4,486 bases of DNA from a virus (taxonomy: Duplodnaviria > Heunggongvirae > Uroviricota > Caudoviricetes). Below the pieces are notes generated by a model, which saw only the letters and a list, made by a program, of their open reading frames with translations, made no database searches and was not told the origin of the DNA. This document shows, one piece after another, positions 1 through 4,486 of the stretch. The stretch is from the IMG/VR virus record IMGVR_UViG_2630968639_000001, positions 1 to 4,486 of that record. One strand, given 5' to 3'. How positions within the stretch are numbered: the stretch's first letter is position 1; each line of letters starts with the position of its first letter. A program made the position numbers and the translations under genes.

Positions 1-446
1 GCACCTTTGTGTGTGATACGCAGGCGTGTACCGATGCCATTATTAATTGCGTTACCACCAGCAGCACCGGCAGCGTTACTACCACCATTGCCACCGCGTC
101 CATAGACAGTCACACCTGCGTTGATTACAAGGCTGATATAAGAGTTGGTAAGTGAACTCGGGAAATCTAAACATGGCACGCCGCTACTGGACGACACCAG
201 ATCCCCTGTAATGGTAACAACGACTGGCGTCGCCCCCTGGGATTTTAAATAGTTGATCAGTGTGTCTTTGTTGTAGTTATGATTCGCACCGATGCTGTAC
301 TGAACTTCTTTAGATCGCCCGGCCATTTGAGACATTGAACCAGCCGCTGGCAGTTGCACCGCCGTTCGAGCCGCACTCATCCATCTCTGGCCTGTCACAC
401 TGACAGCCGAAGACCCAATCCAACCGGGAACACCGACAATTGGCAC
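1..446 (-). CDS. Putative T2-type gp38-like tail-fibre adhesin, N-terminal part (3'-partial, continues beyond window start)
   Basis: Hand translation from GTG 446..444 gives MPIVGVPGWIGSSAVSVTGQRWMSAARTAVQLPAAGSMSQMAGRSKEVQYSIGANHNYNKDTLINYLKSQGATPVVVTITGDLVSSSSGVPCLDFPSSLTNSYISLVINAGVTVYGRGGNGGSNAAGAAGGNAINNGIGTRLRITHKG with no stop through position 1. AAGGAG (plus strand 454..459) sits 7 nt upstream of the GTG. The N-terminal VGVPGWIGSSAV..TGQRWMS motif and the glycine-rich GRGGNGGSN..GG motif match my recollection of T2/T6-type gp38 adhesins. The ORF track misses it because it is partial and GTG-initiated. Confidence 0.7.
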   Translation of the reverse strand, partial: MPIVGVPGWIGSSAVSVTGQRWMSAARTAVQLPAAGSMSQMAGRSKEVQYSIGANHNYNKDTLINYLKSQGATPVVVTITGDLVSSSSGVPCLDFPSSLTNSYISLVINAGVTVYGRGGNGGSNAAGAAGGNAINNGIGTRLRITHKG

Positions 447-453
447 ATCTAAT

Positions 454-459
454 CTCCTT
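454..459 (-). promoter_or_regulatory. Shine-Dalgarno (AAGGAG on minus strand) for the downstream adhesin-like ORF
   Basis: Plus strand ctcctt at 454..459 is AAGGAG on the coding strand, 7 nt upstream of GTG 446..444. Confidence 0.6.
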
Positions 460-480
460 TTTGATGTGAATATCCTGAAT

Positions 481-500
481 GGTGAGGGTGGCCCCTCACC
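481..500 (-). other. GC-rich intercistronic stem-loop (8-bp stem, 4-nt loop) between the fibre stop and the adhesin start
   Basis: GGTGAGGG (481-488) pairs perfectly with CCCTCACC (493-500). On the minus-strand transcript it lies 11 nt after the TAA and is followed by AUUCAGGAUAUU, with no U-tract. Confidence 0.4.
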
Positions 501-511
501 ATTCACCTTGA

Positions 512-3500
512 TTACATTTTTGCCTTCAGTTCGCGCACTTCCTCGCGCAGCTCTTTGACAGCCTCGACCAACATGCCGATAACGCCGTTGTAGTTAAGAC
601 GCAGACGAGGCTCTCCTGACTGATCGTTATGGTCAACCGTTACCAGTTCAGGCTGAACATTCTGGACGTCCTGAGCGATGAGGCCGCCAGACTGCTCATA
701 ACGGCCACAGACCTGAATCTCGTAGAGAACACCTTCGATCTGCTCCAGCTTGTCGAGCGCCCGCTCAATTTTGCGAATATTGCGCTTACTACGGCGGTCG
801 GAACGGATGTAAACGTCATTAAAACTACCGTTGCCTGCGCAAACCCAAGTGCCGTCGTTCTGGAGATAAGCGGCAGCGTCAGTGCCGTTTGCGGTACGTG
901 AGTTGTTGATCATGTAAAAACCAAACTGACTGTTTCCCAAGCCACCCAAGAAGAATTTGCGATCCGCGTGGTCTTGTCTCAACAACGCTTGTGCAGAGCT
1001 TGTACTTACAGCGTTCCTCCCGAAGATGACGTTCTGGTTACGCATATCTATCCACGCGCCAGAGCCGCTGTTGATGGAAAAACGGTTGGCGTAAACCCAC
1101 GCACTTGACGTGATGTCACCCGTTACACTCAACGGCTTAAGGCTTTGCAGCGTGCTATTAACGAACCTAAAAACATGGGCGCTATTGGCGTAAACATCCA
1201 GAATGCCATCTCCGTTCTGTTTAAAGCCGGTGTCATTGTCACCCAGAACAATGGAATTACCGCCAAGACCATTGACCACACCCAGCCCAAGACCACCGTT
1301 AACAACAGCACCATTGCCCATTGTTACTCTGCCATTAGTGAGATCTACATAAAATGGACGAAGCGAACCTATATCACCATTTTCTCCCTGGTCTTTTGCT
1401 GTCGGGATAAGGTAAAAATTATTTTCGGAACGGCGAAAAATCATCCCGTATGCCGCATCGTAAATGCGTAACCCATCCGTAGAGCGGATCTTAAGCTGTC
1501 CGGACATCGTACCGCCGCTGTTTTTCATAAATAGCGCATCAATCCAGCCTGCAAATCCCGACTTATTAATGTATAAATTTCCATCATTTGCCAGAATGCC
1601 TCCACCTTGCGTCTTGAGGGGCTGACTCACATTTTGCAGCGTCAGCACACCAGTCATTGTTCCGCCAGAAATCGGTAACGCACCGACATCAGCCGCAGTG
1701 GGTTTGAGAGCAGTGTTGTAATCTCTGCGCCAGGCAGGGGCATACGCGCTACCGTGATTAATATAGGTGAACTGAGCACTGGCAATACCACCTCCGGTTG
1801 TCGTTGTAGGCGTAGTAACTCGGATGGTCATTGCGCCTTCGTGACCTAAAACCTCGATAACCGCACCAGCAAGACAAATATTGCCGACACCTGTATCAGT
1901 GATAATTTTATTGTCGGCATATGACCAAGAGCCTTTCATCATCCAATACGGTACGGCGAAAGCACCACGCTCCTTCAGCCATGCGATAAATTCAGCGGTA
2001 GTCCAGTTGCCAGCCCCAGTACTGTATGACGCGCTAAACGTCTGTGCAGCCCCAACATCTTTCGCTGTGGGTTTATGAGCAGTGGTATAGACCTGCGCCC
2101 AACCAGACCAATTCGCTGTCGAAGTATCACGGCGTGAACGAACATAAACCGGTGCATGAGCACCATCCGTTCCGCTCCAGCCAACAAGCATCTCGCCCTC
2201 ACCAGAAGCACTCGCACCTTTCATGTGCAATACGTTGCCATACATGGTCGGGTAGCTATTGTTGTACGCCTCATACATTTGAATGCCAGCAGTGCCTTGA
2301 GTAGAGCCGCTTAACGCCGTAACTCGGCCACGAGATACCAATGTATTAATATTGATATCGCCTGAACCATCAAACTTAACACCATTGATGTTTCTCGCTG
2401 TTTGCAACTTCGTAGCCGTTGAAGCATTGCCATTCAAGCTACCATTTACGCCACCAGTAACATTGAGTCCATTAGCGATCGTAACAGCACCATTGGCATT
2501 GTTAATGATAAGCGGCCTTAAACTATTATAGGTTCCCAGGCTGTTACCCGAATTGGTCAACATGAAATATGTGTTTGAACCATCGTTTCGGATAAAGAAT
2601 CCGTAGCTTCCGTAGGCAATGCGCAGACCATTCGCCGATTTTGAAATGATCTCACCAGTAGCCGTTAAACCGCCGTTGAGATTTCCTCCGGTTATTGGTA
2701 ATGCGCCGACATCCGTGGCGGTCGGTTTAATGTGCGAACTGTAAATGACATATACCGTTCCATCAGTAAGACCAGTTGGTTTATTCGCTGTATAAGTTGG
2801 TGATGTATGAATCGTTACGCTGGCGTTACTGGTATAATCCCACTGAATATTAACACCTGTGGCGTAATTACCTATTTCAACATAAACATCATAGGTATCA
2901 CCGGATGTATTCACCCATGCAAAATTAGTAAATCCAACCGATGTCCGTCGCCATAATGCACCAGTAATACCCTTTGGATTTCCATTTCCGGCACGCAGAA
3001 CCAGCTCAGAGATGCCTGCTTGATGCGGGGAGCCAACGTTATACCCTGCACCACCAATCAGGCTTATGTAAACCACGGAACTGGCCTGTGGCATGGTTAC
3101 AGTTGCCAGCTTGAACCATCCGGCACCACCACTAAAAGATATTGTTGCTGAGTTGATCGTGCCTATAGACCTTGGAGTTAGCTCAATGTTTTTAGAACCG
3201 TCAAACGACACCCCATTAATAGTACGCGCAGTCTGCAACTTCGTAGCAGTAGCCGCATTACCTGTTGTATTCTGATTACCAGTCGTATTAACACCTGGCA
3301 AATTAATATTTGCAGTACCATCAAAGCTCACGCCGCCGATAGTTCTTGCCGTCTGTAGTTTTGTAGCAGTTGCGGCATTACCAGTGGTGTTCTGATTACC
3401 CGTAGTATTTACACCTGGAAGGTTGATATTTGCAGAACCGTCGAAACCAACTCCACCGATAGATCTTGCCGTCTGCAATTTCGTTGCTGTACTTGCATTA

Positions 3501-4486
3501 CCATTTAATGTTCCGGTGATACCACCAGTAACAGACAACGGACCTGAAACTGTTCCTCCGGTTGTTGGCAGTGCTCCAATATCTAACGGCGTCGGTTTCT
3601 GATGTGTGCTATACATCGTATAAACAACACCATAGGTAACGCTGGAAGGCTTACTCGCTGAATATGTTGGCGATGTATAAATAGAAACTGACGCATTTGC
3701 AGTACAATCCCAATGGATATTTACACTCGTCGCATAATTGCCAATTTCAACGTAAATATCATATGTATCGCCGGATGTGTTGATCCAGGCGAAATTCGCT
3801 AATCCGACAGCTGTACGCTTCCACAAAGCACCTGTAATTCCTTTGGGGTTTCCATTGCCTGCTCGTAGAACCAGTTCTGAAATGCCTGCCTGATGTGGGG
3901 AACCGACGTTGTAACCAGCGCCACCAATCAATGCGATGTAAACGATGGAACTCGCTTGTGGCATGGTAACCGTAGCCAGTTTGAACCACCCTGCCCCGCC
4001 AGAGAAAGACATCGTTACTGAATTTAAAGTACCAATATCTTTCGGCGTTAATGTGATATCCGCAGTCAGTGCTTTTCCGTTAACTTTTCGGTTAGATGGC
4101 ACCCTGCTATTCGCATTGTCATTGGCTGCTTTAACTGCTTTTGGCGTTGCGGCCAGCGATTCACTGGTGCTGTCGACAGCACTGCTAAGTTTCACAACAC
4201 CTTTAGTTGTAAGGCTTGCGTCTTCCATCGCAACTGCACCGGCAATCTCTTCAGCACGATCAGCAGCAGCTTCCGCACGGGTCGCAGCGGATTCAGCAGC
4301 AGTTTTGCTCTGAGATGCTGCCGTCGCACTGCCTGCCGCCTCTGTTGCCTTCGTGGATGCCGTCGTGGCGCTGCCCTTCGCTGCTGACGCCTGTCTGGTC
4401 GCCTCATCTTTTGAAGCAGACGCCGATGAGGCCGATGACGCCGCCGAACTGGCGGACGATGCGGCAGCCGTTTTTGAGGATTCTGC
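512..4486 (-). CDS. Side/long tail fibre protein, 5'-partial (N-terminus lies beyond window end); lambda Stf-like N-terminal region, repeated distal modules, C-terminal peptidase S74 intramolecular chaperone domain
   Basis: ORF track gives 1238 aa from ATG 4228..4226 to TAA 514..512. My hand translation of the minus strand over 4229..4486 in the same frame has no stop and reads AESSKTAAASSASSAASSASASSASKDEATRQASAAKGSATTASTKATEAAGSATAASQSKTAAESAATRAEAAADRAEEIAGAVA before MEDASLTT, so Met 4228 is internal. The following motif KGVVKLSSAVDSTSESLAATPKAVK matches the conserved lambda Stf-type motif from memory. KPTxxDVGALP motifs recur four times and ATKLQTAR tail-fibre repeats are present. No convincing SD precedes ATG 4228. 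Confidence 0.93.
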   Translation of the reverse strand, partial: AESSKTAAASSASSAASSASSASASKDEATRQASAAKGSATTASTKATEAAGSATAASQSKTAAESAATRAEAAADRAEEIAGAVAMEDASLTTKGVVKLSSAVDSTSESLAATPKAVKAANDNANSRVPSNRKVNGKALTADITLTPKDIGTLNSVTMSFSGGAGWFKLATVTMPQASSIVYIALIGGAGYNVGSPHQAGISELVLRAGNGNPKGITGALWKRTAVGLANFAWINTSGDTYDIYVEIGNYATSVNIHWDCTANASVSIYTSPTYSASKPSSVTYGVVYTMYSTHQKPTPLDIGALPTTGGTVSGPLSVTGGITGTLNGNASTATKLQTARSIGGVGFDGSANINLPGVNTTGNQNTTGNAATATKLQTARTIGGVSFDGTANINLPGVNTTGNQNTTGNAATATKLQTARTINGVSFDGSKNIELTPRSIGTINSATISFSGGAGWFKLATVTMPQASSVVYISLIGGAGYNVGSPHQAGISELVLRAGNGNPKGITGALWRRTSVGFTNFAWVNTSGDTYDVYVEIGNYATGVNIQWDYTSNASVTIHTSPTYTANKPTGLTDGTVYVIYSSHIKPTATDVGALPITGGNLNGGLTATGEIISKSANGLRIAYGSYGFFIRNDGSNTYFMLTNSGNSLGTYNSLRPLIINNANGAVTIANGLNVTGGVNGSLNGNASTATKLQTARNINGVKFDGSGDININTLVSRGRVTALSGSTQGTAGIQMYEAYNNSYPTMYGNVLHMKGASASGEGEMLVGWSGTDGAHAPVYVRSRRDTSTANWSGWAQVYTTAHKPTAKDVGAAQTFSASYSTGAGNWTTAEFIAWLKERGAFAVPYWMMKGSWSYADNKIITDTGVGNICLAGAVIEVLGHEGAMTIRVTTPTTTTGGGIASAQFTYINHGSAYAPAWRRDYNTALKPTAADVGALPISGGTMTGVLTLQNVSQPLKTQGGGILANDGNLYINKSGFAGWIDALFMKNSGGTMSGQLKIRSTDGLRIYDAAYGMIFRRSENNFYLIPTAKDQGENGDIGSLRPFYVDLTNGRVTMGNGAVVNGGLGLGVVNGLGGNSIVLGDNDTGFKQNGDGILDVYANSAHVFRFVNSTLQSLKPLSVTGDITSSAWVYANRFSINSGSGAWIDMRNQNVIFGRNAVSTSSAQALLRQDHADRKFFLGGLGNSQFGFYMINNSRTANGTDAAAYLQNDGTWVCAGNGSFNDVYIRSDRRSKRNIRKIERALDKLEQIEGVLYEIQVCGRYEQSGGLIAQDVQNVQPELVTVDHNDQSGEPRLRLNYNGVIGMLVEAVKELREEVRELKAKM
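515..802 (-). other. Peptidase S74 / intramolecular chaperone autoproteolytic domain (C-terminal 96 codons of the fibre CDS); predicted Ser/Lys dyad Ser 802..800 and Lys 787..785
   Basis: C-terminal sequence SDRRSKRNIRKIERALDKLEQIEGVLYEIQVCGRYEQSGGLIAQDVQNVQPELVTVDHNDQSGEPRLRLNYNGVIGMLVEAVKELREEVRELKAKM. The S-x4-K spacing and the GxIAQ..PELV...NYNG.IG.L.EA.KEL pattern fit the S74 chaperone domains of endosialidase tailspikes and T5 L-shaped fibre as I recall them. Confidence 0.8.
1295..1495 (-). repeat. Copy 2 of the paralogous 'GLRI...SLRP...NG.VT' module (aa ~912-978)
   Basis: IRSTDGLRIYDAAYGMIFRRSENNFYLIPTAKDQGENGDIGSLRPFYVDLTNGRVTMGNG; protein-level similarity only. Confidence 0.5.
2342..2440 (-). 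repeat. Isolated fourth, more diverged copy of the ATKLQTAR repeat unit
   Basis: Encodes SLNGNASTATKLQTARNINGVKFDGSGDININT (fibre aa ~597-629); nucleotide similarity to the array is visible around 2391-2440 against 3341-3390. Confidence 0.7.
2450..2650 (-). repeat. Copy 1 of a paralogous 'GLRI...SLRP...NG.VT' module within the fibre (aa ~527-593)
   Basis: ISKSANGLRIAYGSYGFFIRNDGSNTYFMLTNSGNSLGTYNSLRPLIINNANGAVTIANG aligns with the copy at 1295..1495; protein-level similarity only. Confidence 0.5.
2681..3187 (-). repeat. Copy 2 of the duplicated module of about 169 codons (fibre aa ~348-516)
   Basis: Protein IELTPRSIGTINSATISFSGGAGWFKLATVTMPQASSVVYISLIGGAGYNVGSPHQAGISELVLRAGNGNPKGITGALWRRT...KPTATDVGALPITGG. 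Plus-strand shadow ORFs 3093..3275 and 3945..4313 both begin MVTVASLNHPAPP, an independent sign of the duplication. Confidence 0.85.
3188..3502 (-). repeat. Tandem array of 120-nt (40-codon) repeats, about 2.6 copies, encoding ATKLQTAR-type tail-fibre repeats
   Basis: Units at 3383..3502, 3263..3382 and partial 3188..3262 encode GNA[AS]TATKLQTAR[ST]IGGV[GS]FDG[ST]ANINLPGVNTTGNQNTT. Blocks 3361-3420 and 3241-3300 align base for base with scattered mismatches. Confidence 0.85.
3551..4057 (-). repeat. Copy 1 of a diverged duplicated module of about 169 codons (fibre aa ~58-226)
   Basis: Protein ITLTPKDIGTLNSVTMSFSGGAGWFKLATVTMPQASSIVYIALIGGAGYNVGSPHQAGISELVLRAGNGNPKGITGALWKRT...KPTPLDIGALPTTGG aligns colinearly with copy 2. 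The nucleotide similarity is visible at an 870-nt offset, for example 3751-3810 against 2881-2940. Confidence 0.85.
4229..4486 (-). other. Ala/Ser/Thr-rich low-complexity segment of the fibre protein (lambda Stf-type shaft region), in frame with and upstream of Met 4228
   Basis: Hand translation codon by codon: 86 codons with no stop, dominated by A, S, T, K and E in short quasi-repeats (SAxxA, AAxSxx). Confidence 0.8.

Follow-up and report, generated by a model that had tools for sequence, protein, structure and literature searches.

Phage-plasmids of the SSU5 type are frequent in Enterobacteria and are able to carry resistance genes; their host-range requirements are described as poorly understood (PMC9600943). 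In SSU5 itself, the tail-fibre gene (SSU5_021) is followed by a gene annotated as ‘receptor-recognising phage tail fiber adhesin’ (SSU5_022), and the pair stands between the tail-tip gene J and the lysis genes. The group includes CMS-2020a and the Escherichia coli phage Cyrano, which is the pLF82 phage-plasmid of E. coli LF82 (PMC9928086). The DNA analysed here, called the window, is a stretch of 4,486 nucleotides (nt) at positions 1 to 4,486 of the IMG/VR virus record IMGVR_UViG_2630968639_000001. Very probably it comes from an SSU5-like siphovirus phage-plasmid of E. coli and holds the distal 78% of that element's long tail-fibre gene, together with the start of a tip-adhesin gene; this reading takes in a fibre tip matured by an intramolecular chaperone and completed by a gp38-type adhesin, and a fibre family varied by recombination at linkers. 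The architecture is the one already annotated in SSU5, and a near-identical protein is public.

A related fibre tip is known from the T-even phages T2 and S16 (PDB 6F45). Gp37 of S16 is autocleaved at DLNVS^SDRRIKK, and the T-even fPS phages carry DVYIR^SDGRLKI, in which DVYIR is the predicted gp38-docking strand (PMC7917993). Three conserved tryptophan ‘prongs’ are found in the attachment domain of gp38 (PMC6851490). The locus in the window resembles this system in (i) the S74 motif SDxRxK, (ii) the DVYIR/NVYIR sequence before the cleavage site, (iii) a gp38 gene directly downstream, of the type whose product combines an N-terminal attachment domain with a beta-helix and polyglycine motifs. 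It differs in belonging to a temperate siphovirus-type phage-plasmid rather than a T-even myovirus, and there is no gp36-binding N-terminus. The shaft is instead made of Stf-, Mu- and gp34-like parts, a Mu S-like domain precedes the cleavage site, and the third tryptophan prong is a serine.

SSU5 is closer still in genome type and in gene order. The distal 870 amino acids of its fibre are 64% identical to the fibre in the window, the cleavage motif is identical, and its adhesin has the Gp38_N attachment domain. In contrast, the SSU5 adhesin has only 178 amino acids, with a non-polyglycine C-terminal domain and no match to Pfam GP38, and the SSU5 fibre (1260 amino acids) is without the duplicated module, here called A, described below. 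With the Stf fibre of phage λ, the window fibre has in common an Ala/Ser-rich shaft, the Phage_fiber_2 motif and a position after gene J. Unlike λ, no Tfa gene follows; a gp38-type adhesin gene and then a holin-like gene take its place, and the distal end of the fibre is an S74 domain.

The fibre frame lies on the minus strand and is stop-free, in the translation of the window, from its TAA up to the window edge. It matches PHROG tail-fibre families at E=0, and Pfam Phage_fiber_2, Gp34_trimer and Peptidase_S74 are all matched within it; a frame that stays open for over 1300 codons and matches several families is far from what chance would produce. The closest sequence to the window is an E. 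coli contig (GCA_043600325.2, locus L007), to which positions 16-4486 align in one piece at 99.2% DNA identity. The fibre on this contig (P0001) has 1692 amino acids and is 99.6% identical in protein to the window's 1324 residues. Past the window edge its frame stays open for 368 further codons on the upstream side and starts about 90 nt downstream of the J gene, so that, by comparison with this near-identical relative, the 5′ part missing from the window amounts to 1104 nt. In CP059946 and in Cyrano the fibre frame likewise reaches 1104 nt past the equivalent of position 4486, and in intact relatives generally the fibre is one open reading frame (ORF) of 1455-1692 amino acids that begins about 90 nt after J. 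A first-pass annotation made from the window alone had taken the gene to be truncated by the window edge, and this comparison bears it out. The same annotation had called the beginning of the frame an Stf-like N-terminus. The Ala/Ser-rich stretch and the KGVVKLSS motif are indeed Stf-like (PF03406; about 82% DNA identity to stf genes), but they do not form the N-terminus. The window does not reach the true N-terminus (MWYKEGTITF... in P0001), which falls into PHROG tail-fibre families, and no Pfam match was found in the first 179 amino acids of P0001, including PF08400, the λ Stf N-domain; the Stf-like segment is therefore shaft and not the N-terminal anchor. A 103-nt pattern from the interior of the window had no exact match in genome_contigs or viral_contigs.

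The source of the window can be read from its relatives. It matches 458 PLSDB plasmids, 449 of them non-mobilizable and five covering at least 80% of the window; almost all of their hosts are E. coli, Enterobacter, Citrobacter and Shigella, and those whose records were read are about 106-120 kilobases (kb) long and fall into rep_cluster_488. The phages SSU5, Cyrano and CMS-2020a also match at the DNA level. Annotated relatives have the order tape measure, M, L, K, I, J tip protein, fibre, ‘receptor-recognizing protein’, holin, endolysin, Rz and then TacAT/ParA plasmid genes, with the synteny from J through fibre and adhesin to holin/endolysin seen in L001, L002, L006 and L007. The gp38 part of the window was found on plasmids only (30 of 5426 complete E. 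coli genomes). These plasmid and phage matches, together with the gene order, identify the element as an SSU5-like phage-plasmid with a λ-like siphovirus tail. A scan of the window for promoters and terminators gave fewer sites than in shuffled sequence, and nothing could be drawn from it.

The C-terminus of the fibre resembles the T-even tip. Residues 1229-1283 match Peptidase_S74 (PF13884) over profile positions 1-58 of 58 (3.6e-11; 43.6 bits against a gathering cut-off of 22), and the S74 domain is 42-51% identical to T-even gp37 C-termini, with 42% for the gp37 chaperone of phage PaulHMueller (Bas45). The boundary reads GNGSFNDVYIR^SDRRSKRNIRKI. Ser1229 and Lys1234, five residues downstream at the domain boundary, are the predicted S74 dyad and align with SDRRIK of S16; the five residues before the site are identical to those of the fPS phages, and Bas45 gp37 has NVYIR^SDIRLK. 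DVYIR is predicted to be both the C-terminus of the mature fibre and the strand on which gp38 docks. SSU5 and all four of the other S74-ended sister fibres checked carry exactly this cleavage motif, and at every examined locus with an S74-ended fibre a gene with a Gp38_N domain follows. The motif is absent from Cyrano, which has only the proximal residues 1-448 in common with the window fibre and carries neither S74 nor gp38. The fibre would work like a gp37 tip but is no gp37 orthologue, since its full-length relative has an SSU5-type anchor after J, and the tail genes are those of a λ-like siphovirus.

The gene downstream of the fibre, which the first-pass annotation did not mention, completes this picture. 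A T2/S16-type gp38 is here a gene with PF05268 and PF21721 immediately downstream of a fibre gene. The fragment in the window matches Pfam GP38 (1.1e-40) and Gp38_N (3.8e-15) as well as the S16 adhesin (6F45_D, 1.8e-29), and among the T-even gp38s listed, the closest reach about 70-76% identity to its N-terminal part. A 260-amino-acid relative matches GP38 PF05268 over profile positions 1-217 of 218 (1.4e-70) and has long polyglycine motifs. With such a gene directly downstream, the fibre most likely serves to present gp38 and does not itself bind the final receptor. For gp38-type adhesins in SSU5-like elements we found no paper beyond genome annotations, which does not prove their absence from the literature.

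In λ Stf, Mu S and T4 gp37 the downstream gene serves differently: an assembly chaperone of the T4 gp38 or λ Tfa style, absent from the virion, helps a fibre whose own tip binds the receptor. The Mu S-like nature of the domain before the cleavage site would suit such an arrangement here, as would the loss of one tryptophan prong from the gp38 attachment domain (W9 and W22 are present and the third is Ser37, window 336-338). At the third position S16, Bas45 (W37) and SSU5 (W35) have tryptophan, and the window and its E. coli plasmid relatives have serine. This arrangement is nevertheless very unlikely. The downstream protein belongs to the T2/S16 adhesin family across the whole profile and matches the solved, virion-bound S16 adhesin, and T4 gp38 is very different in sequence from S16 gp38 (PMC6851490). 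The alignment with Mu S ends at Mu residues 445-446 and is strongly conserved as far as about residue 430; the last ~60 residues of Mu S (about 446-504) are replaced here by the S74 chaperone, and DVYIR is kept in common with T-even gp37s that carry gp38. No gene for a U-type assembly protein, as in the Mu and P1 S family, follows the fibre, nor does the window show an invertible G segment. As the identity of the downstream gene, a chaperone of T4 or Tfa type was rejected on the strength of the full adhesin-family profile and the match to a solved adhesin structure.

For a fibre that presents a gp38-type adhesin, the following sequence of events can be proposed. The N-terminal anchor outside the window would attach the fibre to the J-type tail tip, and three fibre chains would trimerise with the help of the C-terminal chaperone, following the S16/T2 and endosialidase paradigms. 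The chaperone would then cleave itself off between Arg1228 and Ser1229, exposing a hydrophobic tip onto which one gp38-type adhesin may dock via its N-terminal helical domain, so that the polyglycine C-terminal domain of gp38 could bind an outer-membrane protein. Variation in the family would come from homologous recombination at four places, (i) the Ala/Ser region, (ii) the NASTATKLQTAR repeat, (iii) the KPTxxDVGA hinge, (iv) the glycine-rich motifs of gp38; at such linker motifs whole modules would be inserted, deleted or swapped in frame.

The receptor is suggested by the full gp38 gene of the relative L007 (15146-15928). The full protein there is 85% identical to the gp38 of Bas45, and the differences are mostly in the attachment half. 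Codons 1-108 have 65% nt identity to Bas45 and a GC content at third codon positions (GC3) of 0.52, which is resident-like; codons 109-260, which include the glycine-rich receptor-binding part, have 94% nt identity (96.7% in protein) and a T-even-like GC3 of 0.28, with 97-100% identity in each 20-codon block from codon 121 to 200. The chimera switches near the first glycine-rich motif. A second locus, L011 (3501-4283), gives the same chimeric gp38 observation. Bas45, a Tequatrovirus, depends on OmpA (PMC8594841), and OmpA is probably the receptor for the near-identical relative L007 as well. The junction is also visible inside the window, whose positions 24-89 are 100% identical to Bas45. A chimera of this kind suggests that a virulent T-even phage and a temperate phage-plasmid have recently passed this DNA from one to the other. 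The receptor of the window's own adhesin is less certain than that of its relative, because the last 23 nt of the window (1-23) diverge: they carry six differences from L007, CP059946 and Bas45, with RLRITHKG encoded where the others have RLRITNNG. Complete E. coli genomes did not contain this allele, and the first 26-44 nt of the window had no exact match in genome_contigs, viral_contigs or metagenome_contigs. The window's adhesin may carry another, undescribed set of receptor-binding loops.

Module shuffling, which the first-pass annotation had proposed for this gene, is visible as in-frame insertions and deletions against sister plasmids, with breakpoints in the repeat and KPTxxDVGA linker motifs. 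The closest sisters, L001 and L002, match window positions 1-2431 at 97-98% and 3195-4486 at 94%, and are without 2432-3194. Their junction falls exactly in a 68-nt repeat unit present in the window at 2364-2431 and 3195-3262, copies that are 831 nt, or 277 codons, apart; by this comparison the window and L007 carry an extra in-frame block made of module A2 and the first gp34-like domain. L004 and L005 are without the Mu S′-like module D, the hinge at K805 being joined to that at K928 with 123 codons fewer. Other relatives have three to five copies of the repeat or unrelated cassettes between repeats, and in one protein (P0012) a λ-type PF08400 anchor is joined to the same distal modules. The GC3 of the modules is lowest in the repeats (0.33) and highest in the chaperone (0.63), a strong difference of the kind that a mosaic origin would produce. 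Taken together, the mosaic patterns fit the long-standing model of recombination at conserved motifs. That model of tail-fibre evolution reportedly goes back to Haggård-Ljungquist (1992), Sandmeier (1994) and Tétart (1998), and Trojet (2011) is said to belong beside them.

Some related loci show further irregularities. On a 130-kb Shigella sonnei contig (GCA_020373665.1, L010, 1-21025) the same distal modules are attached, at a junction in the Ala/Ser region, to a PF08400 Stf N-terminus and λ-type tail genes; downstream of the fibre stand gp38 and then SSU5-type plasmid genes (TacAT, ParA, DnaB-like). Either this is a genuine lambdoid/phage-plasmid hybrid, or the assembly is chimeric across the shared repeat. 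On pPEC178_2 (L002, 8512-12375) the fibre is annotated as a coding sequence plus a pseudogene, and for L004 and L005 (3512-3913) only a 133-amino-acid C-terminal fibre piece is listed. Genuine decay could account for these split or short sister fibres, as could repeats misread in sequencing or an incomplete PLSDB gene table.

Table 1. Features of the window, with residues numbered from the first codon of the fibre frame inside the window
Feature	Position	Strand	Remarks
Long (side) tail-fibre gene, 3′ 78%	512..4486	-	1324 sense codons and TAA 514..512
Ala/Ser-rich shaft segment, residues 1-86	4229..4486	-	common to lambdoid prophage stf genes
Internal Met codon, residue 87	4226..4228	-	false start in public records, from truncated contigs in the one case read
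Phage_fiber_2 motif (KGVVKLSS..LAATPKAVK), residues 91-131	4094..4216	-	PF03406, 3.3e-18, 65 bits (cut-off 22)
Module A1, residues 135-323	3518..4084	-	about 190 amino acids, predicted all-beta; duplicate of A2
Three tandem 40-amino-acid repeats, residues 329-436	3179..3502	-	NA(S/A)TATKLQTAR-IGGV-FDGS-NINLPGVNTTGNQNTTG; in-frame recombination linker
Module A2, residues 437-613	2648..3178	-	second copy of A
Module B1, residues 598-686	2429..2695	-	like T4 gp34 C-terminal trimerisation domain and Mu S
Fourth 40-amino-acid repeat copy, residues 687-713	2348..2428	-	DNA copy 2364-2431 pairs with 3195-3262
Module C, residues 714-806	2069..2347	-	aligned to distal T4 gp34
Module D, residues 807-935	1682..2068	-	homologous to Mu S′ variable part
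Module B2, residues 989-1098	1193..1522	-	second, divergent gp34-like domain; about 37% identical to B1
Distal shaft/tip domain, residues 1133-1228	803..1090	-	homologue of Mu S residues 341-445, 1.5e-36; ends DVYIR
Predicted autocleavage site DVYIR^SDRRSK, residues 1224-1234	785..817	-	aligned to S16 DLNVS SDRRIK
Peptidase_S74 intramolecular chaperone, residues 1229-1324	515..802	-	predicted removal after trimerisation
Perfect 13-base-pair GC-rich stem-loop in fibre-gp38 spacer	476..505	-	-29.9 kcal/mol, z = -4.5; no T-run after
gp38 adhesin gene (T2/S16-type), first 148 codons	1..446	-	GTG start 446..444; AAGGAG 459..454; runs off window
Bas45-identical stretch of gp38	24..89	-	100% nt identity; flanking upstream part about 65-70%

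The features of the window are collected in Table 1. The proximal part of the fibre begins in DNA (4113-4486) that is about 82% identical to the stf genes of many lambdoid phages, and the Ala/Ser region has matches in 3811 of the 5426 E. coli genomes. This segment is likely to be a recombination substrate, and it is also a place where assemblies break. The Phage_fiber_2 motif that follows is shared with fibres of the λ Stf, Mu S and P2 H type and aligns to residues 105-156 of Mu S (5YVQ). The match to this family is given for the truncated protein and is absent from the hit lists of the full-length fibres of L001, L003 and L006, in which the long Ala/Ser region is present. Composition bias in the scoring of whole proteins is one possibility, and the discrepancy is a caveat for domain-based annotation.

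Module A is an internal duplication (residues 127-323 against 415-613, 65-91% identity), and no family or solved relative was found for it. An AlphaFold2 model of A1 (residues 127-323) from a 7-row alignment reached only a predicted local distance difference test (pLDDT) score of 51; at this low confidence it suggests about nine beta strands, and a Foldseek search of the PDB with it returned nothing below E=1e-3 and template-modelling (TM) scores of at most 0.38. The second copy lies in the 831-nt segment missing from the closest sister plasmids. Window positions 2721-3154, within A2, have 88-91.5% nt identity to ‘hypothetical protein’ genes of the Yersinia pestis myophages vB_YpM_39, vB_YpM_5 and vB_YpM_6, the best being vB_YpM_39 with 91.5% over this stretch, which indicates that module A circulates across phage morphotypes and host genera. 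The repeat motif NA[SA]TATKLQTAR has copies at residues 330, 370, 410 and 687. Hinges of the form KPTxxD[IV]GA stand at K297, K587, K805 and K928 and resemble the ...PSDIGALP of T4 gp34; A1 closes with KPTPLDIGALP at K297 (window 3598..3566) and module C with HKPTAKDVGA (2074..2042).

Distally, the fibre is a patchwork of T4 gp34-like and Mu-like domains, and the Mu S and Mu S′ modules come in addition to the Stf-like and T-even-like ones that the first-pass annotation had named. Its T-even-like distal end holds up: there are three Gp34_trimer stretches, besides the S74 identity to gp37 C-termini and the matching DVYIR motif. B1 gives the Gp34_trimer match of 2.1e-32 (best stretch 584-661) and also aligns to residues 265-338 of 5YVQ and to T4 gp34 (4UXE/5NXF). 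The alignment with the distal domains of gp34 spans residues 585-833, including the ...PSDIGALP hinge; these are internal shaft modules of a single-chain fibre here, whereas T4 gp34 is the knee-proximal subunit of a four-protein fibre. Matches to Mu S cover residues 83-134 (3.6e-08), 606-679 and 1133-1238, and that to Mu S′ residues 807-935, the latter three at 1e-28 to 1e-50. Over three stretches 5YVQ matches at 2.1e-72, and the S/S′ chimera 8JU3 matches at 9.4e-61; module D and the Mu S′ part of this chimera (residues 198-328; 1.3e-50) have about 70% identity. In the 65-nt spacer between the fibre and gp38 genes, the stem-loop might tune a 3:1 ratio of fibre to adhesin expression or stabilise the transcript.

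The methionine at residue 87 bears on where the protein begins. An ORF lister gives the gene as 512..4228 because it requires a start codon, and several public records start at this methionine. The first-pass annotation had warned that gene callers would place the start here, and five public proteins (P0079, P0089, P0088, P0091 and P0004) do begin with MEDASLTTKGVVKLSS (MEDASLTTKG), one of them representing a cluster of 39 sequences. Contigs were read for one short record, P0091: they begin about 317-344 nt upstream of the methionine, and the frame is open to the first base of the contig. Its false start is an artefact of the assembly breaking in the Ala/Ser repeat, not a choice of the gene caller on intact DNA, and the window is likewise open to its edge within the Ala/Ser region. 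It is hardly credible, then, that translation starts at this position to give a 1238-amino-acid protein and that the Ala/Ser frame upstream is a separate gene. A fibre so begun would be without any tail-attachment domain, and intact relatives have a single frame from just after J. No stop separates the Ala/Ser frame from Met87, nor is there one beyond position 4486 to split it off in the 99.2% identical relative, which is not the source itself. With the frame continuous in the window, in L007 and to the edge of the P0091 contigs, a separate gene was rejected.

Several points weigh against a fibre with a chaperone-matured tip and a docked gp38 as described. Homology is the basis for the proposed cleavage, trimerisation, gp38 docking and receptor alike. 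Ser37, together with the Mu S-like region upstream of DVYIR, means that the docking geometry may differ from that of S16, and since the last 23 nt of the window are unlike every allele found, the receptor-binding domain may not be Bas45-like. Some SSU5-like elements are not inducible (PMC9600943), and with sister fibres split or pseudogenised, expression in this element is not guaranteed. The locus might even have lost its function and be decaying within a cryptic plasmid prophage, retained only as recombination material: one of those non-inducible elements is from E. coli (PMC9600943), the pPEC178_2 fibre is split, and L004 and L005 have only the short C-terminal piece listed, though PLSDB gene tables are incomplete. 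Such decay is unlikely, because the frame is intact over 1324 codons here and 1692 in the 99.2% identical contig, the Shine-Dalgarno sequence and start of gp38 are intact, and so are the motifs for catalysis and docking. The layout is also that of SSU5 and Cyrano, which their records and PMC9928086 give as infectious or produced phages.

The locus is a clear but ordinary case of host-range genes assembled from modules common to unrelated phages, and conceptually it is not new. Fibres and tip adhesins decide which bacteria a phage, or a plasmid spreading as a phage, can enter. The comparison suggests that the terminal receptor of SSU5-like phage-plasmids can probably be read from their T-even-type gp38, and that a few linker motifs are the places where entire fibre modules are exchanged without loss of frame; fragmented assemblies, in the one record checked, yield truncated fibre annotations from an internal methionine. 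These points are of use in annotation and in the prediction or engineering of host range. A more tentative proposal, with chances somewhat short of even, is that adhesin specificity domains pass at present between SSU5-like phage-plasmids and virulent T-even phages; the extra lateral modules (the two A copies and the Mu S′-like one) might in addition be secondary glycan-binding sites. If such exchange takes place, phage-plasmids would be a standing reservoir of, and an exchange partner for, T-even receptor specificities.

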